Part shown: positions 1 through 11,676 of the stretch, one piece after another | Numbering within the stretch: position 1 is the stretch's first letter | Layout: every line of letters starts with the position of its first letter | Translations under genes and position numbers: made by a program | Assembly (NCBI GenBank): GCA_027064425.1 | Contig: JAMOPO010000025.1 | Location: 1-11,983 of the forward strand | Reading direction: 5' to 3' | DNA length: 11,983 bases | DNA from: Methanobacteriota archaeon | Lineage (GTDB): Archaea; JAADCQ01; Methanopyri; Methanopyrales; Methanopyraceae | The notes under the pieces: model-generated | The model's input: only the letters and a program-made list of their open reading frames with translations | Told to the model about the DNA's origin: nothing | Databases searched by the model: none

Positions 1-533
1 TTGGCGGCGTCGACGACGACGCGGAGTCCCTCGCCGTCGAAGTCGCCGACGTAGTCCAGGACGGCGTCCACGAAGCCGTTCAGGAGCTCGGGGGCGCGGG
101 TCCGCTCGCCGACGGACCGCCAGCCCGCCCGTTTCCCACCCTCCTCGAAGTAGATCCGCTCGATCTCCCGCTCCGCCTCCTTCGAGAGCCCACACCCGTC
201 GGGGCCCAGCAGTTTAATACCGTTGAATTCGGGTGGATTGTGCGAGGCCGTGACGACGGCGCCCGCGTCGAACCCCTCGGCCTCGACGAGGTACTGCACG
301 GCCGGGGTGGGCGCGACGCCGACGTCGGTCACGTCGCAGCCCGCGGCCGTGAGTCCGGCGGCGAGCGCGTCCTTGAGCGTGTCCGTGCTCGTCCGCGTGT
401 CGCCACCGATTAAGACTTCGGCGTCGCCCCCTAGGTACGTGCCGAAGGCGAGGCCCAACCGCCGCGCGAGGTCCTCCGTCAGGTCCTCCCCGACCACGCC
501 CCGGACGCCGAACGTGCCGAACAGCCGGCCCAT
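1..533 (-). CDS. glmM: Phosphohexomutase (phosphoglucosamine mutase / phosphomannomutase family), 5' part; runs off the left edge
   Basis: Not in the ORF track because it is truncated. Manual translation from ATG at 533 gives MGRLFGTFGVRGVVGEDLTEDLARRLGLAFGTYLGG...GGDTRTS...VGVAPTPAVQY...VTASHNPPEFNGIKL, with the FGTxGxRG, DTR, PTP and catalytic-Ser TASHNP motifs. SD-like GGGGGAG at 545-539. Family is certain; GlmM versus PMM/PGM specificity is not. Confidence 0.9.
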   Translation of the reverse strand, partial: MGRLFGTFGVRGVVGEDLTEDLARRLGLAFGTYLGGDAEVLIGGDTRTSTDTLKDALAAGLTAAGCDVTDVGVAPTPAVQYLVEAEGFDAGAVVTASHNPPEFNGIKLLGPDGCGLSKEAEREIERIYFEEGGKRAGWRSVGERTRAPELLNGFVDAVLDYVGDFDGEGLRVVVDAA

Positions 534-558
534 CGGGACTCCCCCGGGTGAGGGAGCG

Positions 559-1002
559 TTGATTAGGCTGGTGTTTAAGATCCTCGAGAAAACGCCGGGC
601 GTGGATGACCCGGAGAGGTTCCTGAAGTTCTCACTGGTGGGACTGAGCGGCGTCTTCGTGAATTTGGGGCTCCTCTGGTTCCTTACCGAGATTGTTGGGA
701 TGTACTACCTGGTGTCCAACGTGATCGCGGTGGAGGTGTCCATAATATCTAACTTCATACTGAATGACCTGTGGACGTGGAGAGACCGGCGCGATCCGGG
801 GCTAATCAATTTCCTAAAGCGGCTTGCGGCCTTTAACGTGGTATGCGCAGGCGGGCTCGTGATAAACACGACAGTCCTATGGGCGCTGACTGCGCTTTTC
901 CATATTTATTATATAGTTTCGGCCCTGTTCGGGATCGCAGCGGCCACGCTCTGGAACTATTGGATGAACAACCGAGTGACCTGGGGTGTCCTGCTTGAGT
1001 GA
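559..1002 (+). CDS. GtrA-family small membrane protein (putative lipid-phosphate-sugar flippase), 147 aa
   Basis: Four hydrophobic segments with the GtrA pattern RFLKFSLVGLSGVFVNLG...SNVIAVEVSIISNFILNDLWTW...WNYWMNNRVTW. Start re-called at TTG 559 behind GGTGAGGGAG (547-556); the upstream part of ORF 223..1002 is antisense to glmM. Confidence 0.9.
   Translation: MIRLVFKILEKTPGVDDPERFLKFSLVGLSGVFVNLGLLWFLTEIVGMYYLVSNVIAVEVSIISNFILNDLWTWRDRRDPGLINFLKRLAAFNVVCAGGLVINTTVLWALTALFHIYYIVSALFGIAAATLWNYWMNNRVTWGVLLE
905..922 (-). promoter_or_regulatory. Candidate BRE-TATA element inside gtrA
   Basis: Minus strand reads CCGAAAC-TATATAATAAA (922->905), resembling the methanogen BRE/TATA arrangement. 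The plus strand also has TTATATA at 909-915. It is formed by six consecutive A/T-ending codons (CAT ATT TAT TAT ATA GTT). Confidence 0.4.
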
Positions 1003-1006
1003 ACGG

Positions 1007-1918
1007 ATGGTCGATGACGTCAGGGAGACGCCGGAGGCCCTCAGGAACGTGCTGGAGGCCGACCTGAGCGGCCTGCCGGACCTCCGTGAGCGGAACTTCG
1101 TCATCACGACCGGCTCGGGCAGCAGTTACCACGTAGCTTACTACGCCTCCATGCTGCTCACCCGGGAGACCGACGTAGCCTCCTCCCACTACCCGGGCAA
1201 GCTGGCTCCCTGGGTTGACGGTGCGGACGCTGTAATCATCTTCTCCATCTCCGGCGGGAAGGACTCACATCGGATCGCGCGCGAGTTCGACGGCGCCGAC
1301 ATCATGGCCGTCACGTGCGAGAAGGACTCTCCGCTCGCCCGAGAAGCGGACTCGGTCCTGCTCATCCCGGTGGAGCGGGAGTCCGGGTTCCTGAACACCA
1401 AGACCATCGTTGCGGCCATGTACGCCTTCTGCGCCTATGTGTCCGAGGTCACGGGCTCGAATGTCCTGAACACGAGGGCGCCGGACGAGGTGGAGAAGTC
1501 GATCGAGGCGGATCCACGGGACGACCTCGTCGAGGCCATGCGCGAGTGTGAGAAGGTCTTCTTCGTTGGGGACGGGTACCTCCACGTCGCCGCGGAGCAG
1601 GCCGCGCTTAAGGCCGTCGAGGTGGGGGACGCCAACGCCCTGGCCACCACGACCGACGAGCTCTTTCACGGCAGGTTCTTTGGGGACCACTCGCGCCGGC
1701 TTTACGTCTGCCTGAACGAGGGCAGCGCGGACCTCATCGAGGAGCGCTCGAACGGCGAGGCCAACATTTTCCGACCGGATGAGGTGGTAAAAGTTAAGGT
1801 TGAACCCGACGACCCGAACGCGCCCGTCGTGGTCCTGCCCGCCCTGTACCTGGCCATCGACGCGGCGTACGGCCCCGTCAACACTTCACAGGCCAGGGAC
1901 TGGTGGGACCACCTCTAA
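1007..1918 (+). CDS. Double-SIS-domain phosphosugar isomerase/deaminase-like protein (resembles the GlmS isomerase half, no glutaminase domain), 303 aa
   Basis: Motifs TGSGSSYH, FSISGG, NTKT, FFVGDG...EQAALKAVE and ELFHG parallel the GlmS C-terminal SIS domains (GxGTS, SQSG, TK, EGALKLKE, ELKHGP). ATG 1007 lies 4 nt after the gtrA stop, preceded by GAGTGA. Confidence 0.8.
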   Translation: MVDDVRETPEALRNVLEADLSGLPDLRERNFVITTGSGSSYHVAYYASMLLTRETDVASSHYPGKLAPWVDGADAVIIFSISGGKDSHRIAREFDGADIMAVTCEKDSPLAREADSVLLIPVERESGFLNTKTIVAAMYAFCAYVSEVTGSNVLNTRAPDEVEKSIEADPRDDLVEAMRECEKVFFVGDGYLHVAAEQAALKAVEVGDANALATTTDELFHGRFFGDHSRRLYVCLNEGSADLIEERSNGEANIFRPDEVVKVKVEPDDPNAPVVVLPALYLAIDAAYGPVNTSQARDWWDHL

Positions 1919-1933
1919 CCGGGGCGAGGAGCG

Positions 1934-3004
1934 TTGAACACGGACGCGGTGGTCCTGGCGGGCGGGTTCGGGACCCGGTTGAGACCGCTCACCTGGGACA
2001 CCCCCAAACCGCTGGTTCCGATCCTCGGTCGACCTTTGCTCGAGTGGGTGATTCGCAGCCTACCTGACGACGTCGTGCACGTTCACATCGCCGCCGGGTT
2101 CAGCTCCGACAAGCTGGAGAGGTACGTCGAGTCCAACCCCCTACCTCGCAAGCTTCACTTGAAGGTGGAACCCAAGCCCCTGGACACGGCGGGCGCGATC
2201 AAGTTCGCCTGCCGGGACTCGACCGCGGACGTGTTCGTAGTCTTCAACGGTGACATAATCTCCTCGCTCGACGTGCGTGAGATGCTCGAGTTCCACCGCG
2301 AGCACGATGGCATCGCCACGATCGCGCTGTATCCCGTGCCCGAGGACGAGGTTTCCCGGTTCGGTGTGGTGGATCTGAACGAGGACAACCGCATCCTGAA
2401 CTTTGTCGAGAAGCCGGCCCCCGAGGAGGCTCCCTCCAACCTGATCAACGCAGGGGCCTACGTCCTGGACAGGGAGGTGCTCGACTACATCCCCGAGGGC
2501 CGACCGGTCTCCATCGAGCGTGAGATCTTCCCGAAGCTGGCCGAGGAGGGCCTCCTCTACGGGTTCAAGTTCGAGGGTTACTGGGTCGACGTCGGACTCC
2601 CGGAGACCTACCTCGAGGCGCACTGGGTCTTGATGGAGCACGAGTGTTCCGGCGCGGCCTTGGTGGGGGTCCGGACGGACGGCGCGGAGGTAAACGAGCC
2701 CGTTGTCGCCGACCCAATGAGCGAAATCAAGGACTCGACCGTCGGCCCCTACGTGTACATCGGAGGACGCGTCGAGATCGACGGGGCCGTGATAAAGAAC
2801 TCAGTCATCCTGGCGGACGCGCGCATCGAGAACGCCGAGATTAAGGACACGATCATCGCGGAGAAGTGCCACGTCGAGGACGCCGAGCTTGAGGGATGCG
2901 TCATCGGGCACGACGCTGAGGTCTCGGGATGCACACTGAAGGATGTCAAGGTAGCGCCCGGCAAGGAGGCGGGGGAGGACCTCGAGGGCCAGTGGGTGAT
3001 CTAG
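1934..3004 (+). CDS. Sugar-1-phosphate nucleotidyltransferase (mannose-1-phosphate guanylyltransferase-like) with C-terminal left-handed beta-helix, 356 aa
   Basis: LAGGFGTRLRPLT...PKPLVP signature, NGD, FVEKP, INAGAY, SIEREIFP, GYWVDVG and hexapeptide-like C-terminal repeats. TTG start with GAGGAG SD. Confidence 0.92.
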   Translation: MNTDAVVLAGGFGTRLRPLTWDTPKPLVPILGRPLLEWVIRSLPDDVVHVHIAAGFSSDKLERYVESNPLPRKLHLKVEPKPLDTAGAIKFACRDSTADVFVVFNGDIISSLDVREMLEFHREHDGIATIALYPVPEDEVSRFGVVDLNEDNRILNFVEKPAPEEAPSNLINAGAYVLDREVLDYIPEGRPVSIEREIFPKLAEEGLLYGFKFEGYWVDVGLPETYLEAHWVLMEHECSGAALVGVRTDGAEVNEPVVADPMSEIKDSTVGPYVYIGGRVEIDGAVIKNSVILADARIENAEIKDTIIAEKCHVEDAELEGCVIGHDAEVSGCTLKDVKVAPGKEAGEDLEGQWVI

Positions 3005-3433
3005 GTGAGTGAGCGCACCATTGACACCATCCGGATCATCGCGTACGTCTTCTTCCTGTTCTTCGTACTCCCCGTCCTGATATTCGCCCTCGTCGTGGTC
3101 CTGGCACCTCTCGTGGTGTTGCTAGTGCTGATGGTGGCTTTCGTGGTCATATTCACTCAGATCCCCTGGACACCGCCGGAGTTCAGCCTCGCAGCGGAGG
3201 TAATTCTGATCGCGCTGTACCAAATAACCCGCGAGAAGCTGCTGCTTGAGGTCGCAGAGAACCTGGCGACCCATCGGAAGAAGTCCCTCGAGCTGGACCG
3301 CGAGGAGGACATTGAGAGAGCGCTGGAGGAGGGTGACACGAAGCGCGCGCTGCGCCTCTACCTCCGGGAGATCATGGAGAGGGTCGTTGGGAGTCCCCCA
3401 CATGCTAAGCCCGAAGACCGTGGCGACGATTAA
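3005..3433 (+). CDS. Hypothetical membrane protein (N-terminal TM segments plus charged helical C-terminus), 142 aa
   Basis: GTG directly abuts the upstream TAG. About 45 hydrophobic residues are followed by an E/R/L-rich helical tail; C/G-ending codons fit the other genes. Confidence 0.7.
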   Translation: MSERTIDTIRIIAYVFFLFFVLPVLIFALVVVLAPLVVLLVLMVAFVVIFTQIPWTPPEFSLAAEVILIALYQITREKLLLEVAENLATHRKKSLELDREEDIERALEEGDTKRALRLYLREIMERVVGSPPHAKPEDRGDD

Positions 3434-3965
3434 CACCGTCGTTACGAGCCTCCCGTTCGCCATCTCCCTGTACCTTGTCCTACGCAGGATGGGACGCACG
3501 CTGATTCAAATGTACTCCCTGGCGTATCTGGCCCCGTTCCTCGTGATCGTCTACGGTGTCTCGGTCCCGGTTCCGGGCAACCTGTACGCGTATTTCACGG
3601 GTGCCCCCGTGCTGTTGACGTACGGGGTCGCGGACGCGGCGGTCCTAACCTACGCCGTGGGCTCGGCGCTCGCGGTTATGTTCGTGGGCATGGACCAGTG
3701 GGCCGACGTGCTCTACTCGGGCTCGCTGACCGCAATGTGGCTGCTGAACGCGGTTATGGACTTGGGTCCCCGGGCCTCGCTGCTCCTCGGGTCGGCGATC
3801 ACGGTCGCGTCGAACATGTTCGTGGCACTGTACAAGTACCACGCCTGGCCCATAATCCCGCTTCCTTCGGTAATACTCCAGTTCTCGGTGGCTGTGGGAG
3901 CGATAACGGCGCTGGAGGGATTGGCGTGGTGGGTCTTCACGAAGCTAAAGCCGCCTGCGCGGTAG
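3402..3965 (+). CDS. Hypothetical polytopic membrane protein (about 6 TM segments), 187 aa
   Basis: Start re-called at ATG 3402 (GGGAG upstream). MLSPKTVATINTVVTSLPFAISLYLVL... is hydrophobic throughout. Overlaps the upstream gene by 32 nt. Confidence 0.7.
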   Translation: MLSPKTVATINTVVTSLPFAISLYLVLRRMGRTLIQMYSLAYLAPFLVIVYGVSVPVPGNLYAYFTGAPVLLTYGVADAAVLTYAVGSALAVMFVGMDQWADVLYSGSLTAMWLLNAVMDLGPRASLLLGSAITVASNMFVALYKYHAWPIIPLPSVILQFSVAVGAITALEGLAWWVFTKLKPPAR

Positions 3966-4540
3966 CCGTCGCCATCCTAGCGTTGATCAACGCTCTCGCG
4001 GTGAGCCACCCGAGGTTTCGGCCGGTAGGTACCACCATCACGTACCCGTGGCTGAACTCGAGCGATACCTACAGGGTGTTGTCGCTTCCCGTCCTCTCGG
4101 GTCCCTCGGTTAACACCATACTCCCGGTCGGGCTCTTCGTGTCCTCCGACAGGCTGTTCGTAGGCCCTCTAACCACGGACGTCAGCAGCGCGTCGCTGTG
4201 GCCGAAATCCACGAGCACCAAGCTGACACCTCTGCTCCGGCGGCTTTCACCCGACGCGCGCGTCTCGTGTTACGGGATCAGCTCCCGCCACTTGGACGTA
4301 GCCGTTTCAGAAACCCTCTCGGTGTTGGTCGGGAAGCGCTGCGTGGTGGTTGTTGGGAGGGACTACCTGATGGTGGTAAGCTGCGAGCGCGCCAGCGTTA
4401 GGAGGTGTTTAGGAGGCGCGTACGTGTCCGCGAGCAAGGCTAGCCTGGTCATGTCGTTCCCGGAGCGTATCCTGGAGGGGGCCTATACGTGGAGGCCAAG
4501 GTTACCGCTGTCGCTGCCGTTTCCGCACTTGTCTCTATAG
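3926..4540 (+). CDS. Family A member A1: membrane-anchored/secreted protein of unknown function, 204 aa
   Basis: GTG 3926 behind GGAGGGA (3914-3920) and an N-terminal signal/TM segment (AACAVAVAILALINALAVS). Paralog of 7518-8111: TYPWL, LPVLSGP/MPVVMGP, DRLxxGPLT, RVSxYG, YVS, PER, W[RK]P. Confidence 0.75.
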   Translation: MVGLHEAKAACAVAVAILALINALAVSHPRFRPVGTTITYPWLNSSDTYRVLSLPVLSGPSVNTILPVGLFVSSDRLFVGPLTTDVSSASLWPKSTSTKLTPLLRRLSPDARVSCYGISSRHLDVAVSETLSVLVGKRCVVVVGRDYLMVVSCERASVRRCLGGAYVSASKASLVMSFPERILEGAYTWRPRLPLSLPFPHLSL

Positions 4541-6732
4541 CGTTCGTCGTCTACGACTGCTGCGAGGAAGTGGGTAGGATCACCACGACCATGGACCTGC
4601 CCATCCAAGCCCTAAAGACGTACCTCATAGCGAAGTACGGCCTGTCGGGCGCCGACTGGGACCCGTACTCGTACTTAGGCAGAGCCCCACTGGTCAACTA
4701 CCCCATTCTTCCCTTTCTCTTTCCCGCCCTCCTTACCAGGCTCACCAAAGACCCGATGCTATCCTGCTCCGTCACCGAGATTATCTATAGATCGGTTCCA
4801 GTGATCGTTTGGCTATTCCTTCTTTTCCTCGGTAAGTGCTCCTCCAGGGCCACTGTAGCCACCCTTGTGTACCTAATTTCCTACCCGGTGTTCTCCGTAT
4901 ACGACGCCCATTACGTGAGGATAGCCACAACCATGTACTTCTGTTCCGCCGTCGTGGCGATCACCGTTTGGCACTCGAAATTGAGCAGAAGGGTGAGGGA
5001 AACCTTATCCATACTGGCCTGGTTCGCATCGGTACAATCGAACTTTGTGTACTCGCTCGTGCCGCTCGTCGTGGTGTCCATCATGGAAAGTCCGAAGCTG
5101 CTCGTCGCCGCCGGCGCCGCGGTGCCGCCCATGGTGCTGGCCTACTGGGCGGGGAAGCTGGAGTTCGACAACCCTCCCGCCTCCTCACGGCTCACGCTCT
5201 CCCCGTACGACACCGTCGACACCACGCTGATTCTGGTCGTGACAGCGCTCGTGGCCACCGTGGTAGCGCTGTCTTTCCTGCTCGAGGATTGGAGAAAAAG
5301 TGCCCTGATCTCGCTGCTGACGGTGACGGCCTCCCTGGGACCGTTCGCGGTGTTCGCGGCGCCCCCGCTGGCCTACGGGGTCCTGAAGGTTGTCAAGGTG
5401 GTGGCGCAGCTCGACCCTCACCGGCTCGCGCTGATGGCACTGCTCTCTTTGATCGCCCTATGCGCCCGAGTCGCCGAGCGCCTGCTGCGAACGATCACGG
5501 TGTGCGGCGGCGTGGGATCAGTGGCCTGCTTCCTGATGGCCCTCACGGTCCTCCTCGGGGTCTGCCGATGGGATGTGGCCCCCATGCACGCCCTGCAGCT
5601 CGGGCATGGTCCGCGGGACGTCAGGAGCGTGGTGACCTCACCCAACGACGCGAGCGCCATCTTTCCCTGGAACGGTCGGACCGTCGGGGCGTCGCTGGCC
5701 GGGGCCTTCTATCAAGGTAGCTCGGAGCCTGAGCTCCGCGTGCTCTCGGCGGTCTACTTCCCAGGCAGCTTGCTCTCCACGCTGCGCTTTTCGGACTACG
5801 TTCGTCGGCCGCTTTACAACCAGGCGTTCGACCCTCAGCTGGCCGACAAGGTGGTGAGGATCCTTCCTGCCGGTCGGGTGGAGCACCTGCCGGGAATCAT
5901 CGTCCCGACGTCCGGCCTGGCGGACGTGCGGACGGTGGCGATAAGGAACGCGCCCGCCATCACCGTACGGGACGCCATCCCGGTGCGCAGGGCTAGGGCG
6001 CTCTACGTGGGCTCGTTCACGGACTACAGTTACCTGTGGTTGAATGTGGTGCGGTGCGCGCCCGCGGGCTACTTCCCCGTAATCCCCTGCCTCCGCCCCT
6101 ACGATCTCAAGCACCACCAGCAGCTCGACGTGACCAGGTACTGGACCGGAGAGATCCTGATCCTGGACCCTGAGGCCGTCAATTACCCGCACCTCGACAG
6201 GCTGGTTCACCGCGCCAAGGTGGTCCTGGCGGTGCGAGGGGCCTTCGACAGCAGGGGGCTCGGCTCGATCCTGGGAGCCGTTCACCGGTGCGGGAAGCGC
6301 GCCGAGGTCATCGACGGGATCGACCGTCCCATCAAGGCCCCGGTTCTGCGGGACCTCGCTAGGGTCACCGCCGTCCCCGTTAACCACGCCGAGCGCGGAG
6401 TCGTGCAGCCGGTCGGCAACGATCGAATGATTGTGAGGCCCCGGAGCGAGCTGTCCATCATCCCGTGGGCGTGGGCGCCGTTTTGGGCGGTGAACGGGCG
6501 GGAGGGTGAGGCGTGCCCGGTCGGCCCGTACATGCTCGTCAGGACCGGAGGCAAACCCGCCCACCTACACTACGTCGCCTGGGAACGATACCAGTCCCGA
6601 GCCTACGAGGTCTCGGTGCTGCTTCTGGCGCTCAGCGTCGTCGGCGTCACGTGCTCCGAGCTCGTCCGGGGTAGGCCGGCTAAAGGGAGTAGGGCCACCT
6701 CGGGTACCTCCACACCAGGTCCTGAAAGGTGA
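4489..6732 (+). CDS. Family B member B1: large polytopic membrane protein, YfhO/PF10131-like (predicted GT-C glycosyltransferase), 747 aa
   Basis: N-terminal TM, then MDLPIQALK...WDPYSYLGRAPLVNYP (D...K...WxPxxxxGxxPxxxYP loop), about 10 further TMs, a large soluble domain and a YfhO-like end (WAPFWAVNG...YMLV...LHY plus a final TM). GTG start with GGAGGGG SD. CDS is solid; the family call is by motif recognition. Confidence 0.7.
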   Translation: MEAKVTAVAAVSALVSIAFVVYDCCEEVGRITTTMDLPIQALKTYLIAKYGLSGADWDPYSYLGRAPLVNYPILPFLFPALLTRLTKDPMLSCSVTEIIYRSVPVIVWLFLLFLGKCSSRATVATLVYLISYPVFSVYDAHYVRIATTMYFCSAVVAITVWHSKLSRRVRETLSILAWFASVQSNFVYSLVPLVVVSIMESPKLLVAAGAAVPPMVLAYWAGKLEFDNPPASSRLTLSPYDTVDTTLILVVTALVATVVALSFLLEDWRKSALISLLTVTASLGPFAVFAAPPLAYGVLKVVKVVAQLDPHRLALMALLSLIALCARVAERLLRTITVCGGVGSVACFLMALTVLLGVCRWDVAPMHALQLGHGPRDVRSVVTSPNDASAIFPWNGRTVGASLAGAFYQGSSEPELRVLSAVYFPGSLLSTLRFSDYVRRPLYNQAFDPQLADKVVRILPAGRVEHLPGIIVPTSGLADVRTVAIRNAPAITVRDAIPVRRARALYVGSFTDYSYLWLNVVRCAPAGYFPVIPCLRPYDLKHHQQLDVTRYWTGEILILDPEAVNYPHLDRLVHRAKVVLAVRGAFDSRGLGSILGAVHRCGKRAEVIDGIDRPIKAPVLRDLARVTAVPVNHAERGVVQPVGNDRMIVRPRSELSIIPWAWAPFWAVNGREGEACPVGPYMLVRTGGKPAHLHYVAWERYQSRAYEVSVLLLALSVVGVTCSELVRGRPAKGSRATSGTSTPGPER
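6004..6146 (+). repeat. Direct repeat tract 1, copy a (143 bp, identical to 9545-9687)
   Basis: Base-by-base comparison: TACGTGGGCTCGTTCACGGAC...GTGACCAGGTACTGGAC identical at offset 3541; flanks mismatch. Confidence 0.97.
6458..6606 (+). repeat. Direct repeat tract 2, copy a (149 bp, identical to 10008-10156)
   Basis: Base-by-base comparison: TCATCCCGTGGGCGTGGGCG...CCAGTCCCGAGCCTAC identical at offset 3550. Confidence 0.97.
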
Positions 6733-7459
6733 AATTAGGCAGGACGATCGGTGACCAGCGGATCACCATCCCGCCGCGTGATCGGATGACCCCGCGGACC
6801 CCATCCACGTCGAGCCGCCCGTGCCGGGCCTCCACGGCTGTGATTTCCATCGGGGTTGGAAGGCCGAGAATCAGGAAGGCCCGGGACAGGAGTGGGATCC
6901 TTGCCATTGAGATGATGGCCAGGTGGTGAACCTTCCCTTCGTACCCGCGGACCATCTTACCGTGGACTATCAAGGAAGGAGGGACGTACGTTGCTGAGCC
7001 GCTCCAGATGACACTTTTAAGTAGTACCAGTGAGCACGGGCCGCTGACTTCTACCCCGGAGTAGTTCACCCTAACCTTGGGCCTCCCGGAGCAGACGATC
7101 GTGAATGGTGCCGGCATCGGGCCCATGTACACGTTGACGCGATTCCCGCTGACGACCACCCAGTATCGGCCGGCGAGGTGCGGGATGGGGACGATCTCAT
7201 ATCCTCCCATGGAGGGGAGGTTGAACTTCTCATAGGCGGTGGGGTCGCGGTACCAGGCGTAAACGGGGACGGGGCCGGGCTGAAGGTCCCTACCGCTCAC
7301 CGCCGGCAGCCTTTTAACGCTCATTATCTTCACCGAGGGGGGAGTGGGGTTCGTCGTCGCCGCCGTCCACGTGTGGAAGTATCCCTTCGAGACGGCTAGG
7401 ACGGCCACCAGGACGGCCACAAGTTGTGTGAAAAGGACGGGCCGGACGTAACCGGGCAT
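6680..7459 (-). CDS. Membrane-anchored/secreted protein, probable distant family A member (A3), 259 aa
   Basis: N-terminal TM (LFTQLVAVLVAVLAVS), T/P linker and beta-rich body. YAWYRDPTAYEKFNLPSMGG aligns without gaps to A1 YPWLNSSDTYRVLSLPVLSG; C-terminal VWRYPRWPYSL resembles A1 TWRPRLPLSL. GGGGCGGTG precedes the ATG. Confidence 0.7.
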   Translation of the reverse strand: MPGYVRPVLFTQLVAVLVAVLAVSKGYFHTWTAATTNPTPPSVKIMSVKRLPAVSGRDLQPGPVPVYAWYRDPTAYEKFNLPSMGGYEIVPIPHLAGRYWVVVSGNRVNVYMGPMPAPFTIVCSGRPKVRVNYSGVEVSGPCSLVLLKSVIWSGSATYVPPSLIVHGKMVRGYEGKVHHLAIISMARIPLLSRAFLILGLPTPMEITAVEARHGRLDVDGVRGVIRSRGGMVIRWSPIVLPNFTFQDLVWRYPRWPYSL

Positions 7460-7470
7460 GCACCGCCCCC

Positions 7471-7491
7471 GGGCGCGGTCCCTCCGCGCCC
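7471..7491. promoter_or_regulatory. Perfect 8-bp inverted repeat in the A3/A2 divergent intergenic region
   Basis: GGGCGCGG-TCCCT-CCGCGCCC, immediately followed by the main AT-rich patch of the gap (ATTATT, 7492-7497). The repeat is certain; its function is not. Confidence 0.35.
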
Positions 7492-7517
7492 ATTATTGGG
7501 TCATTCGGGGAGGGAAC

Positions 7518-8111
7518 ATGAGGGGCCTGAGGCTCGTTGCGGCGGCCCTGATTGGCTGGCTGTGGTGCGCCGTGGCATGGTCGGCGGTGAATCCCAGGTA
7601 CGTCATTCACGACGGAAAGGTGACGTACCCGTGGCTTCGGGACGGCTTCCGGACGCTGGAGATGCCCGTGGTCATGGGACCGGTGACGGACACCTGGGTC
7701 CCCTGGAGGGTCGTACAGGCGTCGGAGTGGCTGATCTGGGGGTGGTTGGAGGCGGGACCCGATCGTCTCGCGTTGGGGCCCTTGACGTACCGGTCGAGCG
7801 GGAGCTGGGCCAAGCTGATGAGGGCGTCGGAGGGTACCAGAGTGTCGGGGTACGGGCTGAAGTCCGGGGATTCCGACCTGATTTTTCGGGGCTTCCTAGT
7901 GGACAGGGGAGGTAGGTGGCTCGTCCTGTTGTGCCCGGGCGGTCCGGTCCTGGTGCTCGGTGGGAAGATCAGGGAGTGGCGGGTGTTCGGGGAGGTTTAC
8001 GTGTCGCTCCGGAGGGGGATGGTGATCGCCGTCCTGCCAGAGCGCGTGTTCTGGGGAGTGCATGTTTGGAAACCGAGCTTGCGATTGTCCTCATTGGGTT
8101 TACCGCCCTGA
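7518..8111 (+). CDS. Family A member A2: membrane-anchored/secreted, Trp-rich protein of unknown function, 197 aa
   Basis: ATG 7518 behind GGGGAGGG, a signal-like N-terminus (MRGLRLVAAALIGWLWCAVAWSA) and collinear motifs with A1. Confidence 0.78.
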   Translation: MRGLRLVAAALIGWLWCAVAWSAVNPRYVIHDGKVTYPWLRDGFRTLEMPVVMGPVTDTWVPWRVVQASEWLIWGWLEAGPDRLALGPLTYRSSGSWAKLMRASEGTRVSGYGLKSGDSDLIFRGFLVDRGGRWLVLLCPGGPVLVLGGKIREWRVFGEVYVSLRRGMVIAVLPERVFWGVHVWKPSLRLSSLGLPP

Positions 8112-10252
8112 TGCTGGGCCCGATGATCTGGGACTGCTGCGTTAACGCCGGCGCTTCCCCGGCGGACATGGACCTGGCCGTTCAGGCTGTGAAAACGTAC
8201 CTGATCAGCCGTCACGGACTCGCCGGCGGCGACTGGGATCCTCACTCGTACCTGGGCCGGCCGCCGCTGGTCAACTACCCTGTGGTCCCGTTCTTACTCC
8301 CCGCGCTGCTCTCTAGGTGCGTCGACCCGGCCCTCGCGTGCTCGATCTCCGAGTACGTGTACAGGATGCTGCCCGTGTTGGTCTGGGCCGCGCTCAGGCT
8401 GGCCGGAGCGGACTCCCGCGGGTCTCTAGGGGCGCTGATCGTCTATTTGGTTCTGTATCCGATCTACCTGCTGCACAATGCCACTTACGTGCGGGTGGCC
8501 ACGACGCTGGCGTACTGCGCGTTCACGACCGCTGTGATCGTATGGTACTCAAACCTTGGACGCAGACTTCGGACCGCAACCTCCGCCGCGCTGCTCTACG
8601 TCGCGCTCCTGTCAAATTTCATCTATATCCTACTCCCGGCGGCGGCGTTCGCGCTCCTGGAGTCCCGCACGCTCTTCCCACCGATCCTGTCCGCGACCCC
8701 GGTCCTGTATCTGGCGTACGAGTTCGGCAAACTGAGCTTCAGCAACGTGCCCGCCTCGTGCCACTTCACCTACACGATCCTGGACAAAGGGACGACGATG
8801 ATCCTCGGGCTCCTGTCCGGCCTTGCCGTCCTGACGCTGCTCATCAGCCTATTGGACTCACGCTCGGCGGTGCTGTCGCTGGGGACGGGAGCCTGCCTGG
8901 CGACGCTCGCCGGATGGTGCATGGTATCCCCCGGGCTGGAGAAGCTCATGATCGGGTCGGCGAAGGTGCTCACGCAGCTCGACCTGCAACGGCTCCCAAT
9001 CATCCCCTCGTTGACGCTCACGATCGGGGTGGCAAGGGTGAGCCGCAAACGGTCGCTTCCTCCGACGTGGGCGCTGATCGGCCTCCCGCCGGTCTGCCTC
9101 ACGGCCATTGGATCGGCGGCGCTTCCATGGGTGAGCCTGCCCAGCCTGATCGCAGGGGTCTATGACGGGCACGAGCAGCGGGTCTTCGTGGCCGGCACGG
9201 CCGACGCCTTGTTCCCGTGGAAGGACGGGAGGCTGGGCATGTCACTGATGGGAGCCTTCCATCAGGGGCTTCCGGAACCGGCGTTGAGGGTGCTCACGGC
9301 CACGTACTTCCCGCTGGGCACGATGGCGGGTGGGTTCAGCGACTACTCTCATCGACCGGGTTACAACCAGCCCTTCAGCCTAGAGTTAACCCGGAAGCTC
9401 CTCGACATACTCCCCACCGGCCGCGTGGAGGTGATGGTGGAGCCTGCGGCCTTGCACGGGCCATGCGACGTGAAGGGAGTGCCAGAGGTCCGGTCACGGG
9501 TGAGCCTAAGGGACGCCCTGCCCGTCGATCGCGTTCGGGTCCTTTACGTGGGCTCGTTCACGGACTACAGTTACCTGTGGTTGAATGTGGTGCGGTGCGC
9601 GCCCGCGGGCTACTTCCCCGTAATCCCCTGCCTCCGCCCCTACGATCTCAAGCACCACCAGCAGCTCGACGTGACCAGGTACTGGACGGGGGACGTCCTT
9701 GTCGTTGACCCCGGGGCTCTTCAACACCCGGGCCTGAGGCGGCTGGTGAAGCGCGCTAGGATCGTTGTCGTCGCGCACTCGTCGCCGGCCCTGGATCGCG
9801 CGGACGTGAAGGACGTCGTCCGGCTCGTGAGAAAGTGCGGTAAGCGGCCCATCGTGCTGGGACCCGTCCACAGACCGATCGCGCCTCGGGCTCTGCGACC
9901 CCTGATGCGGTCACTGGTTCACTGGGACGGGTGCAAGGTGAAGGGCGCCGTGCACCTGGCGGCGAACGACAGGATGGTCGTGGACGGGGTAAGGTCACGC
10001 CTGGCCGTCATCCCGTGGGCGTGGGCGCCGTTTTGGGCGGTGAACGGGCGGGAGGGTGAGGCGTGCCCGGTCGGCCCGTACATGCTCGTCAGGACCGGAG
10101 GCAAACCCGCCCACCTACACTACGTCGCCTGGGAACGATACCAGTCCCGAGCCTACCTTTGCTCCGCCCTCCTTTTCATCGGCCTCACCGCGGCGGCAGT
10201 GATGCTCAGCAGCGCAAGGAGCAGGCTGAAGGGGGCCGTCGGCCTGTCGTAG
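8066..10252 (+). CDS. Family B member B2: YfhO/PF10131-like polytopic membrane protein (predicted GT-C glycosyltransferase), 728 aa
   Basis: Start re-called at TTG 8066 (GGGGAG at 8053-8058), matching the B1 start position. Full-length paralog of B1: DCC, MDL, KTYLI, DWDPxSYLGRxPLVNYP, YVRxATT, QLD, FPW, GAFxQG, FSDY, YNQ. Confidence 0.72.
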   Translation: METELAIVLIGFTALMLGPMIWDCCVNAGASPADMDLAVQAVKTYLISRHGLAGGDWDPHSYLGRPPLVNYPVVPFLLPALLSRCVDPALACSISEYVYRMLPVLVWAALRLAGADSRGSLGALIVYLVLYPIYLLHNATYVRVATTLAYCAFTTAVIVWYSNLGRRLRTATSAALLYVALLSNFIYILLPAAAFALLESRTLFPPILSATPVLYLAYEFGKLSFSNVPASCHFTYTILDKGTTMILGLLSGLAVLTLLISLLDSRSAVLSLGTGACLATLAGWCMVSPGLEKLMIGSAKVLTQLDLQRLPIIPSLTLTIGVARVSRKRSLPPTWALIGLPPVCLTAIGSAALPWVSLPSLIAGVYDGHEQRVFVAGTADALFPWKDGRLGMSLMGAFHQGLPEPALRVLTATYFPLGTMAGGFSDYSHRPGYNQPFSLELTRKLLDILPTGRVEVMVEPAALHGPCDVKGVPEVRSRVSLRDALPVDRVRVLYVGSFTDYSYLWLNVVRCAPAGYFPVIPCLRPYDLKHHQQLDVTRYWTGDVLVVDPGALQHPGLRRLVKRARIVVVAHSSPALDRADVKDVVRLVRKCGKRPIVLGPVHRPIAPRALRPLMRSLVHWDGCKVKGAVHLAANDRMVVDGVRSRLAVIPWAWAPFWAVNGREGEACPVGPYMLVRTGGKPAHLHYVAWERYQSRAYLCSALLFIGLTAAAVMLSSARSRLKGAVGLS
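9545..9687 (+). repeat. Direct repeat tract 1, copy b
   Basis: Identical to 6004-6146. Confidence 0.97.
10008..10156 (+). repeat. Direct repeat tract 2, copy b
   Basis: Identical to 6458-6606. Confidence 0.97.
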
Positions 10253-11676
10253 CGCACGCGTCCGTTGAGGACCATCAGGCCGGCCGGTCCCGGCCGGCGG
10301 TGGGAGTGAGGCTTCCACCAGGGGCTGAACGACTGGGCCACTAGCCCGTGGCCGGAGAGCGTCCTGGGGGTTAGTACGAGGGGCTCCGAGACGGGCTTGA
10401 TGCCGTTCAAACGGGACCACTCGTACGCGAGGGTGAGCTGGTCGGAGGACTGAGCAGCCAGGTGTCCGGGGGACACGATCCTCAGGATCTTCAGCTTTAG
10501 CTGCAGCACCCTCGGTTCCACGCTCGAGGACGGGGTGAAAGCCACGTACCGCGAGTCCCCGACCTGAGTCATCAGGATGGCGAACGTGGCCGTCGCGGGC
10601 GTCGTGGACAGGAACGGCGGATTCACCACCGGTCGCCCGCGGAGCACGTGGTGGACAACCTCCGTGAACCACGGGTCGCTCGAGACCACCGCGACGGCGC
10701 TTCCCGACCCGACGGTGACGGAGCCGGCGATCGTCATCCTGGGCTTCGCCAGATACGAGAGCTCGGCCATGTTGAGCGGGATGAACGTCAGCGACATCAG
10801 CGCGGCGGAGGCCAGGACCCGTCGATGCCTCCGCTCCAGCCCGGCTAGCACGGAGTCGGCGTACCGGAGGGCCTCCGATAGGGCCAGAACGTACGGGAAC
10901 GCCAACCCCATGACGAGTCCGGGATGAAGGAGGGAAGCCGCGGCCAGGACGCAGGCCAGCAGCGCAGGTGCTTTCCACCGGGTCCCGAGCGCACGGTGCA
11001 GCAGGTAGCCCAGGGTTACCGTCACCGCAAGGGACACTGAGATACCCAGGCAGTACGCGATCGTCAACGGGCTCAGGATGGCGGATGTCGCCATCCGGTT
11101 TATCGACTCGGCGAGGTACGAAGCGAGGTCGTCGGCGGTGCACGCGAGGGAGGCGATCAGCGGCCACGGGGATGGAGATCGTAGCGCGAGCTCCACGCAC
11201 AGGGCCAACTCCGGCAGGGCAAGGGATCCCAGGGTCCTTCGGGCGGGCGAGCCCGTCGCCAGCCCGGCCAGGTAACAGACGACGAGCGCGGGAGCGGGGT
11301 GTAGGGTGTAAGCGACGGCGGCCAGCGAGGGTAGCGCCAGGGTCGCGGCCAGGAGGCGGGAGCGAAAGGCCAGGTACGTGCACAGGGAGACGGCGAGGAC
11401 GGCCAGCAGGGTCGTCGATCGGCCGAGCCCGTAGAGCAGGTAGTACGGGGTGGGGGACAGCGGGTACCCGCCACCTAAGTAAGGGTTCCACTCCGGGAGC
11501 TCGTGCGCCCTGAGGCTCTCGGCGACCGCCTTGAGGTTCGCCACCCCGGAGGCGTAGACGTAGGGGAAGAGGGGAACGCGGAGTGGGACCAGGGCCAAGA
11601 AGATCAAGACCAGGCTTGCCATCGAGCCCAGCGCGATGGCGTCGACGTGCCTCCGGGTCGGGAAAGGCACCGGCAT
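10153..11676 (-). CDS. Family B distant member B3: shortened YfhO/PF10131-like polytopic membrane protein, 507 aa
   Basis: TM, then LPEWNPYLGGGYPLSPTPYYLLY (W[ND]PY..G.P loop), many TMs, a soluble domain and a C-terminal SFSPWWK...GPAGLMVL...VRY plus final TM that parallels the B1/B2 end. Confidence 0.68.
   Translation of the reverse strand: MPVPFPTRRHVDAIALGSMASLVLIFLALVPLRVPLFPYVYASGVANLKAVAESLRAHELPEWNPYLGGGYPLSPTPYYLLYGLGRSTTLLAVLAVSLCTYLAFRSRLLAATLALPSLAAVAYTLHPAPALVVCYLAGLATGSPARRTLGSLALPELALCVELALRSPSPWPLIASLACTADDLASYLAESINRMATSAILSPLTIAYCLGISVSLAVTVTLGYLLHRALGTRWKAPALLACVLAAASLLHPGLVMGLAFPYVLALSEALRYADSVLAGLERRHRRVLASAALMSLTFIPLNMAELSYLAKPRMTIAGSVTVGSGSAVAVVSSDPWFTEVVHHVLRGRPVVNPPFLSTTPATATFAILMTQVGDSRYVAFTPSSSVEPRVLQLKLKILRIVSPGHLAAQSSDQLTLAYEWSRLNGIKPVSEPLVLTPRTLSGHGLVAQSFSPWWKPHSHRRPGPAGLMVLNGRVRYDRPTAPFSLLLALLSITAAAVRPMKRRAEQR

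Follow-up and report, generated by a model that had tools for sequence, protein, structure and literature searches.

The stretch of DNA analysed here (the window) is the entire contig C25, 11,983 bases long, of a metagenome-assembled Methanopyrus genome of 1.54 Mb in 57 contigs (G000), and it carries a gene island that we examined as a candidate transmembrane glycosylation system of the cell surface of Methanopyrus, a heat-loving methanogen. The database relatives of its proteins are labelled Methanopyrus kandleri, Methanopyrus sp. or Methanopyri archaeon, and five other Methanopyrus genomes (G001-G005) were used for comparison. A preliminary description of the window, made from the letters alone, had proposed that sugar-nucleotide supply genes, a GtrA flippase, three GT-C-like proteins of YfhO/PF10131 type (B1, B2, B3) and three partner proteins act together in such a system.

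Gene content and layout of the island

Thirteen genes were delimited by an open reading frame listing, homology and ribosome-binding sites, GGAGG/GGTGA-like sites being present 5' of most starts (Table 1). The window has a G+C content of 59-69%. Pfam matched five of its proteins only, those of the mutase, gtrA, SIS, nucleotidyltransferase and carB genes, and gave no family for M1, M2, A1, B1, C, A2, B2 or B3. From gtrA to B1 the genes are tightly spaced, with 4 nucleotides (nt) between gtrA and SIS, 15 nt between SIS and the nucleotidyltransferase gene and 0 nt before M1, followed by overlaps of 32 nt (M1/M2), 40 nt (M2/A1) and 52 nt (A1/B1). These figures reproduced exactly those of the preliminary description, and the phosphohexomutase that it had placed divergently beside gtrA was a PGM/PMM-type gene across a 25-nt gap. 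Its suggestion that gtrA to B1 form one operon was borne out for the tight spacing, whereas only gtrA to M2 proved to be an invariant unit, the A-B pair being separated from it in two genomes. Further downstream A2 and B2 overlap by 46 nt, and convergent overlaps join B1 to C (53 nt) and B2 to B3 (100 nt). A scan of the window for bacterial-type signals remained at chance, with 3 promoter-like sites where 1.7 were expected and 6 terminator-like ones where 5.8 were, and the palindrome CGTTA-N9-TAACG was absent from it, with 2 two-mismatch matches against 2.35 expected.

The contig is real and its gene set is not due to chance. Each of five public sequencing runs from two studies contained at least 94% of the sampled words of the contig. 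Two of the five, one per study, were mapped as contigs only and covered it in all 30 depth bins, as identical short pieces; no RNA run was among those listed for the contig.

Table 1 Positions, strands and features of the thirteen genes of the window
Gene	Positions	Strand	Features
PGM/PMM-type hexose-phosphate mutase, N-terminal 177 residues	3-533	-	Truncated by contig end; Pfam PGM_PMM_I
gtrA, four-helix membrane protein	559-1002	+	PF04138
SIS, double-SIS sugar-phosphate isomerase-like protein	1007-1918	+	Pfam SIS
Sugar-1-phosphate nucleotidyltransferase, C-terminal left-handed beta-helix, GMPPB type	1934-3004	+	Pfam NTP_transferase
M1, orphan of 142 amino acids (aa)	3005-3433	+	One very hydrophobic helix and charged tail
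M2, 187-aa orphan	3402-3965	+	About five membrane helices; final gene of the invariant core
A1	3926-4540	+	Single N-terminal anchor and extracytoplasmic domain of ~175 aa
B1, 747-aa polytopic membrane protein	4489-6732	+	Predicted GT-C-fold domain
C ('A3'), 259 aa	6680-7459	-	N-terminal anchor and extracytoplasmic domain
A2, A1 paralogue	7518-8111	+	GGGGAGGG ribosome-binding site 5' of the ATG at 7518
B2, 728-aa B1 paralogue	8066-10252	+	TTG start; database copy P0005 starts at the same point
B3, 507-aa polytopic membrane protein	10153-11676	-	Tentatively GT-C
carB, first 85 codons	11729-11983	+	Pfam match

GtrA as the putative membrane half of a split synthase

The GtrA protein has four hydrophobic segments by hydropathy and matched PF04138 (GtrA_DPMS_TM, 'GtrA/DPMS transmembrane domain') at E 1.9e-29, with 102.7 bits against a cut-off of 26.1; in the source genome this family occurred only at the gtrA locus type. 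Its sole match in the PDB was the dolichol-phosphate-mannose synthase (DPMS) chain of P. furiosus at positions 252-373 (E 9e-19). The preliminary description had seen no GT-A loader in the window, and the genome-wide search for a GT2 enzyme that it called for found two genes elsewhere, one for a soluble 239-aa protein on contig C52 and one for a 598-aa GpgS-like protein. The 239-aa protein, which we take as the likely loader, aligned among all solved structures with positions 23-247 of the P. furiosus DPMS chain (E 7e-54), and the catalytic and membrane halves abut on that chain at positions 247 and 252. The second GT2 gene (G000:C15:283685-284035; L017 1294-3090) encodes a GpgS-like catalytic domain (224 bits, below the cut-off of 262), then membrane helices and then a long C-terminal domain.

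Natural fusions connect the two halves. GtrA was matched at E 0.001 or better by 163 longer proteins, and among the 120 of these listed nearly all were about 350-380 aa long and combined PF00535 with PF04138. The C-termini of the fused GT2+GtrA proteins among the matches listed were 45-63% identical to GtrA over 78-97% of its length; in one fused protein of 369 aa (P0021) the 239-aa GT2 aligned with residues 10-235, and GtrA residues 2-142 with residues 227-363. Two of the listed matches were fused to PMT-type GT-C domains (P0121, 817 aa, GT2+GtrA+PMT; P0135, 638 aa, GtrA+PMT_2), and these metagenomic proteins appear to provide a Rosetta-stone link between the loader, the flippase-like domain and the GT-C transferase. 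In all five other Methanopyrus genomes the catalytic GT2 gene was separate, with open frames of 242-289 aa in G001, G002 and G004, and in two complete genomes it lay 44-45 kb from gtrA.

Type-III DPMS is defined as a single chain with a catalytic domain and a four-helix membrane domain (PMC12992685), whereas here the catalytic gene is on C52 and the membrane gene in the window. The motifs given for type III are DAD[LFY]QHPP, SRY, Arg131, Ser135 and Lys178 in the enzyme, and Asn248, Asn277 and the gating Phe338 in the membrane domain (PMC12992685). Alignment to the P. furiosus DPMS showed that the 239-aa GT2 retains SRY, Arg131 and Ser135, and that GtrA keeps Asn248 and Asn277, the two Asn of the polar pocket; at the Arg341 position GtrA has Asn, which is present there in all type-III sequences outside Thermococcales (PMC12992685). 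Judged from these similarities, the window GtrA appears to be the detached membrane domain of a type-III DPMS that is split into two genes, and by analogy it is a candidate flippase for dolichol-phosphate-mannose (Dol-P-Man). The earlier label of 'GtrA flippase' was thus right about the family and can be made more specific, while flipping itself would follow only from the comparison with the fused enzyme. The main text of PMC12992685 (supplements aside) contains none of the words 'Methanopyrus', 'split' and 'separate', and a literature search returned no paper pairing Methanopyrus kandleri with GtrA.

Sugar-nucleotide supply genes

Three genes around gtrA point to a nucleotide-sugar route. The nucleotidyltransferase matched Pfam NTP_transferase (E 5.7e-44), and its best NCBIfam model was man1P guanylyltransferase (man1P_GTase; 234 bits, below the cut-off of 440). 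Its best PDB matches were GDP-mannose pyrophosphorylases, led by human GMPPB (7d72, E 6e-51, residues 5-350) and followed by 7x8j and 8yre, whereas the GlmU-like ST0452 reached about 1e-22 only. Its similarities thus make it likely to be a mannose-1-phosphate guanylyltransferase. The mutase matched PGM_PMM_I at E 3.3e-44. The SIS protein matched Pfam SIS at E 1.4e-14, with weak matches, all below the cut-off, to NagB-II, the GlmS isomerase domain and GlmD; we infer that it acts as a phosphomannose isomerase.

A second paralogue of the archaeal GlmM type (Arch_GlmM) adjoins a bona fide archaeal GlmU on contig C52. This canonical GlmM-GlmU pair is an obvious route to UDP-GlcNAc and leaves the mutase and nucleotidyltransferase of the window free for another sugar. 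Of the two donors considered earlier, GDP-mannose or an amino sugar, GDP-mannose is therefore the most likely, and the amino-sugar reading was ranked lower because of the pair on C52 and the GMPPB-like nucleotidyltransferase. Together, the mutase, SIS protein and nucleotidyltransferase probably form a GDP-mannose route, in which the specificities of the isomerase and the mutase would follow from their company.

B1 and B2 as predicted GT-C-fold proteins

Over 711 residues B1 and B2 share 48% identity. Word-indexed searching of 5.8 billion proteins found nine B-family members, and an exhaustive profile search of 1.84 billion representatives found eight, all at E 2e-73 or better; the family appears from these searches to be restricted to Methanopyrus. 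Hydropathy and an AlphaFold2 (AF2) model of B1 (predicted template-modelling score 0.78; mean predicted local distance difference test, pLDDT, 73.7) gave the same layout, in which a polytopic domain (residues 1 to ~360) is followed by ~340 external residues and a C-terminal anchor helix. The external part was modelled as a flavodoxin/CheY-like alpha/beta domain at about 500-630 (Z 6-8) and a beta module.

In a Foldseek-independent search of 48,161 representative chains, ranks 1-13 for B1 were all GT-C proteins (Z 12.5-7.5, 251-377 residues aligned), and since Z values below about 13 are possible among helical bundles, we base the GT-C assignment on the uniformity of the top rows and not on the score. 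Pmt4 ranked first (Z 12.5, 308 residues aligned), followed by ArnT (12.3), AftA (11.7), Pmt1/2 (11.7), ALG12 (11.3), AglB of A. fulgidus (11.1) and STT3B (10.7), and then by ALG9, PglB, ALG6, GPI-mannosyltransferase I, ALG3 and DPY19 (7.5). In a second structure look with B1, ranks 1-23 were all GT-C, and the best Foldseek rows, though sub-threshold, were AftD, Stt3, STT3A, Pmt4, AftA and AftB. The GT-C-like fold that had been proposed for B1 and B2 is thereby upheld for the B1 model, which has only GT-C chains at its top; for B2 the fold is inferred from its 48% identity to B1. The closest structural matches (Pmt1/2, Pmt4, ArnT, AftA and STT3/AglB; Z 10.7-12.8, about 300-375 residues aligned) differ from B in that sequence identity is 8-12%, no Pfam match is made, there is no MIR domain and the external domains are different.

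The catalytic signature of GT-C enzymes is a conserved acidic residue or motif of their first extracytoplasmic loop, and the sugar donor of PMTs is Dol-P-Man. The alignment of 22 B sequences shows no variation at D36 or at D56-W57-D58. These residues sit in the first external loop, which connects helix 1 to helix 2, and by analogy this acidic motif of B1 is a candidate catalytic site. The clustering of B with a GtrA/DPMS subunit and GDP-mannose genes suggests that the donor would be a polyprenyl-phosphate-linked sugar on the outer membrane face.

The relationship to YfhO and PF10131 is more distant than the preliminary description had it. PF10131 (PTPS_related) and YfhO (PF09586) share the layout of B, in which an N-terminal polytopic domain is followed by a large external part (alpha/beta domain and beta module) and the chain ends in an anchor helix. 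Module by module, hhalign related B to the Methanopyrus PF10131 proteins at E 3.3e-4 for the N-terminus (89 columns) and at E 9.5e-4 for the C-terminus. In a language-model atlas the neighbours of B1 at 0.97-0.98 include PF10131 clusters, and those of B1 and B3 include both PF10131 and YfhO. Neither model matched any of nine B and six B3 members at E up to 10, and a genome-wide PF10131 search at the same limit found genes only on contigs C29 and C57, outside the island. Table 2 of PMC7801869 groups PF10131 with GT-C/PMT families by HHpred and lists it as 'function unknown'. The YfhO/PF10131-type label thus survives for architecture and weak module similarity and fails for family membership, as no score was obtained against the PF10131, YfhO or STT3 models. 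B is probably distant kin of PF10131 and not a member, and B1 and B2 are, on the model, best described as a new, very divergent GT-C-fold family.

The PF10131 gene on C29 (G000:C29:29759-31501; L020 2306-4921; 302 bits) has the membrane, alpha/beta, beta-module and anchor layout seen in B, and the one on C57 (G000:C57:168876-170081; L021; 78 bits) is part of a very long open reading frame of 1511 aa. An identity of B with STT3/AglB was rejected, since PF02516 gave no match, the WWDYG-type motif (WW[DE][YWFN]G) was found in 0/22 B and 0/6 B3 sequences, and AglB at Z 11.1 was no better than PMT or ArnT. An ad-hoc first-loop motif present in 22/22 B, 5/6 B3 and 0/5 PF10131 sequences was written post hoc and was not used as evidence.

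B3, the partner proteins and the membrane orphans

B3 has the same layout as B, with a membrane domain, an external domain and a C-terminal anchor, and it carries an invariant E59 and an [EQ]-W-[ND]-P-Y stretch where B has its first-loop motif. BLAST found no similarity between B3 and B1 (best E 4.3). With hhalign the C-terminal module of B3 matched that of B at E 1e-4, and its modules gave nothing against PF10131 (E 0.19 and 0.31). The two best structural rows of the B3 model were GT-C proteins (Pmt1/2, Z 6.5; AftA, Z 6.3), with short helical hairpins within 1 Z of them, and its atlas neighbours at 0.92-0.93 included RgtA-like, AftD, PF10131 and YfhO clusters (structural TM by query 0.43-0.61). 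The model leans towards B3 being a GT-C protein, so that the earlier GT-C-like label is kept only tentatively, its two best rows having hairpins close behind.

A1 and A2 are 29% identical (E 1e-18), and profile comparison of A with C gave no similarity (hhalign E 0.31). Hydropathy gives one plan for A1, A2 and C, namely a single hydrophobic anchor at the N-terminus and a domain outside the membrane. The 'three B' and 'three partners' of the preliminary description accordingly stand as paralogues for A1/A2 and B1/B2, while B3 and C are grouped with them by architecture, because no similarity of B3 to B1 or of C to A was detectable. Profiles of A, C, B and B3 found nothing relevant in Pfam at E up to 10, and M1 and M2 had no Pfam or NCBIfam match. 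M1 has one hydrophobic segment (residues 24-42), and the gene keeps its place in all loci.

A, C, M2 and B3 were confined to the genus in the genomes searched. A was present in 5/61 genomes including the source (4/5 other Methanopyrus, 0/55 outside the genus). C and B3 were each present in 5/21 genomes including the source (4/5 other Methanopyrus, 0/15 outside the genus), and M2 likewise in 5/21 (4/5 other Methanopyrus, 0/15 from other archaeal families). G004 (94% complete, about 90 contigs) has the catalytic GT2 gene, but searches for gtrA, A, C, M2 and B3 found nothing in it; the island is absent either from the assembly or from the lineage itself.

Synteny and variability of the island

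Contig C3 of the source assembly and the genomes G001, G002 and G003 carry this set of genes too, again bounded by the mutase gene and carB, and the pieces from G005 agree. The core gtrA-SIS-nucleotidyltransferase-M1-M2 is constant in order and the remainder is rearranged. Downstream of M2, G001 and G002 have A-B and then C-B3 on the opposite strand, contig C3 has A-B and then B3-C on the opposite strand, G003 (with which the G005 pieces agree) has C on the opposite strand, then A-B and then B3, and in the window both A-B positions are occupied. The A gene was directly upstream of and overlapped the B gene of the locus in every case. C and B3 are same-strand neighbours on contig C3 (B3 first) and in G001 and G002 (C first); in the window and in G003 they are separated by the A2-B2 pair. 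The link of gtrA and the nucleotidyltransferase gene with A-B, proposed earlier from the window, was thus found in relatives as well, since the core occurred with an A-B pair, C and B3 in every locus examined.

Divergence was strongly uneven along the locus. Between the window and the other loci, flanks and sugar genes are 80-100% identical (SIS 59-94%), M1 and M2 55-67% (M1 55-63% in all loci, M2 62-69% across the genus), and A, B, C and B3 28-67%. Against contig C3, the supply genes had a synonymous divergence (dS) of 0.24-0.56 and a ratio of non-synonymous to synonymous divergence (omega) of 0.04-0.11, whereas the orphan genes had a dS of 0.85-1.33, a non-synonymous divergence (dN) of 0.25-0.63 and an omega of 0.24-0.53. 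The high dS together with high dN in the orphans indicates that the variable part is an older, more freely changing allele and not merely a relaxed one.

Each complete genome has one such locus, and the source assembly has C25 and C3 with the fragments C4 and C28, which we read as alleles of co-existing strains. In sequencing run X5 the depth was 570-760 over the left flank against about 90-150 over most of the variable part. These results mark the island clearly as hypervariable in the natural populations of hydrothermal vents. In one contig of run X5, at depth 650, position 6543 is followed directly by 10658, with the 4114 bases between them missing and only 36 letters on the shorter arm; the junction may come from a different allele of the dominant strain or from the B1/B2 repeat.

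Two tracts of B1 and B2 are much closer than the proteins are otherwise (48%), with 83% identity between 5966-6224 and 9507-9765 and 99% between 6451-6606 and 10001-10156. On contig C4 a B gene (L012, 1401-3623) has a B1-like front and a B2-like end, with B3 directly after it, and this contig looks like a recombinant that lost C and A2. The shared tracts and the hybrid gene on C4 point to recombination between B paralogues.

Further B-family genes lie outside the island. A fourth paralogue, 31-35% identical to B1, is directly downstream of the 564-codon N-terminal half of carB in every genome examined (L008 4567-6618(-), L009 3385-5448(-), L010 4849-6858(-), L011 3343-5376(-)), and no A-type gene was detected beside it at these loci; carB appears to be split in the genus. 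Two others, 32-33% identical to B1, lie at L014 (G000:C16) 531-2687 and L015 (G000:C18) 489-2537. The copy on C16 reads through two in-frame stop codons near its end and may be a decaying copy or an assembly artefact.

Discussion

We propose, with a probability of roughly 0.6, that Methanopyrus uses the island to mannosylate its cell surface by a lipid-linked, extracytoplasmic route; this would be a new form of the GT-A/GtrA/GT-C transmembrane glycosylation scheme. Its activity, acceptor, flipping step, partner binding and co-transcription are proposals that go beyond the homology and the predicted fold. In the proposed mechanism, the SIS protein, the divergent mutase and the GMPPB-like nucleotidyltransferase would make GDP-mannose, the last step being suggested by similarity and the other specificities by context. 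The soluble 239-aa GT2 would load mannose on dolichol phosphate, as its similarity to the solved P. furiosus synthase suggests. GtrA, homologous to the membrane domain of that synthase, would receive Dol-P-Man and, if the published hypothesis on the fused enzyme applies, move the head group to the outer face. There B1, B2 and probably B3, with their predicted fold, would transfer the sugar to S-layer or other secreted proteins, pseudomurein or glycolipids. Each B protein may be paired with an anchored extracytoplasmic partner (A1, A2 or C), either an acceptor-specificity subunit or the acceptor itself. The system would combine the conserved core from gtrA to M2 with fast-diverging, rearranging cassettes of A-B, C and B3 that differ between co-existing strains, and such fast divergence fits selection on the cell surface.

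Several observations weigh against this proposal. The sequence searches of Pfam, NCBIfam and the PDB, where tried, found nothing for B, B3, A, C, M1 or M2; the B profile gave chance rows only against PDB sequences (best E 1.3), and the exhaustive profile search of 1.84 billion proteins found no B relative outside the family. The AF2 model of B1 was built from one shallow, genus-only alignment (22 rows, 17 non-redundant), is poorly defined in the first external loop at 58-70 (pLDDT <50) and in the linker at 359-410, and had no Foldseek match at E 0.001 or better. Full-length profile comparisons were not significant for B against the Methanopyrus PF10131 profile (E 0.038, probability 1.4%), for B3 against B (E 0.0058, probability 6%) or for B3 against PF10131 (E 0.09, probability 0.6%), and the AF2 model of B3 is poor (pLDDT 53). 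On the supply side, a full-length copy of the mutase on contig C3, 91% identical, passes the NCBIfam model Arch_GlmM (552 bits against a cut-off of 439), and the nearest relatives of the SIS protein are amino-sugar enzymes. The 239-aa GT2 has DADGQHPP in place of DAD[LFY]QHPP and Glu at the Lys178 position, and GtrA has Thr at the position of Phe338; given these departures from the type-III motifs, the sugar could be another hexose.

The amino-sugar relatives of the SIS protein and the mutase, and the lack of a GT-C sequence signal for B in Pfam, the PDB or 1.84 billion proteins, would also suit a different arrangement, in which housekeeping sugar genes (for GDP-mannose/Dol-P-Man, or for an amino sugar of pseudomurein or glycolipids) merely lie beside an enzymatically unlinked, fast-evolving island of surface proteins such as receptors, adhesins or envelope scaffolds. 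The contrast in omega between supply and orphan genes and the saturated dS of the latter fit such a boundary, as do the opposite-strand gene between the core and A-B in G003 and the G005 pieces, and the further B paralogue that sits by the N-terminal half of carB with no sugar genes as neighbours. However, the membrane domain of B1 matched GT-C proteins exclusively at the top of 48,161 chains, and its first external loop holds an invariant acidic motif at the place where GT-C enzymes have theirs. The chain of overlaps also runs on from M1 and M2 into A1 and B1, the core is linked to A-B, C and B3 in every locus seen, and GT2, GtrA and PMT-type GT-C domains occur naturally fused. We consider this arrangement unlikely.

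Less probable still, GtrA would be only a DPM3-like membrane anchor that docks the soluble synthase without flipping, and another protein, e.g. M2, would flip, with the rest of the mechanism unchanged. For the fused type-III enzyme, flipped Dol-P-Man is bound in the membrane domain and a translocator role has been proposed, a hypothesis from one crystal state (PMC12992685); this basis, the Thr at the gating Phe338 position of GtrA and the presence of M2, a conserved polytopic core orphan of about five helices, leave room for an anchor. However, removal of the membrane domain leaves DPMS catalysis intact (PMC12992685), so that an anchor is unnecessary for activity in vitro, both polar-pocket Asn are kept, the Asn at the Arg341 position is as in type-III sequences outside Thermococcales, and gtrA sits with the consumers of flipped Dol-P-Man and not with the catalytic gene. 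A free-standing GtrA domain clustered with presumed outside transferases fits the translocator proposal, though it is no proof of it.

The mannosylation system proposed here can be compared with the three-component transmembrane glycosylation systems of B. subtilis and Listeria (CsbB or GtlA, GtcA, YfhO or GtlB) and of Shigella phages (GtrA, GtrB and a Gtr-type protein). Such systems are the subject of the review PMC8035078. The logic is the same, in that a polyprenyl phosphate receives its sugar from a GT-A enzyme, flipping is presumably the task of a GtrA-family protein and a GT-C protein transfers the sugar outside, and GT-C and GtrA genes are clustered in those systems as in the Methanopyrus island. 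In contrast to them, the Methanopyrus system presumably uses dolichol phosphate as its lipid, has the gene for its GT-A loader outside the cluster, with GtrA as the putative detached membrane domain of that loader, and has nucleotide-sugar supply genes inside the cluster. There are, moreover, three GT-C candidates in two sequence families with no YfhO or PF10131 model match, the anchored extracytoplasmic partners A or C are without bacterial counterpart, and M1 and M2 are additional. The P. furiosus DPMS, of which structures are available (PDB 5MLZ, 5MM0, 5MM1 and 9EP0; PMC12992685, PMC5526996), is one chain, whereas its Methanopyrus counterpart would be encoded by two genes, with 44-45 kb between them in both complete genomes. 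What seems to be new here is the view of GtrA as a split-off DPMS membrane domain and of B1/B2 as a previously unrecognised GT-C-fold family.

The B family thereby gains a predicted fold and a hypothesis, B3 a tentative fold, and the Methanopyrus orphans A, C, M1 and M2 a context. According to PMC8993221, Aeropyrum pernix and M. kandleri are the only sequenced archaea that lack AglB. Run against the whole genome with E allowed up to 1, the STT3/AglB model PF02516 had no match, while it did match in four archaeal control genomes, and the PMT_2 and YfhO models found nothing in the genome either. This leaves the two PF10131 proteins and the families B and B3 as the only GT-C-type candidates that we found in the organism. 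A bolder and rather doubtful extension is that Methanopyrus glycosylates its surface proteins through the island in place of AglB. B/A and B3/C pairs would then be two-subunit, Dol-P-Man-dependent protein glycosyltransferases of a new GT-C family in which the partner chooses the acceptor. Under pressure from viruses or predators, strains would exchange and diversify these cassettes, and the natural split of the synthase would be evidence that the type-III membrane domain acts as an autonomous Dol-P-Man flippase, travelling with the enzymes that consume its product.

How Dol-P-Man is flipped is an unsolved problem, for which a 2026 paper proposes the membrane domain of the type-III synthase as flipper (PMC12992685), and a free-standing type-III domain clustered with presumed outside transferases is a natural experiment on it. 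The island, in which a genus-specific family of predicted GT-C fold adjoins genes for GDP-mannose supply and a subunit that would handle Dol-P-Man, is a concrete candidate for envelope decoration in an organism reported to lack AglB.

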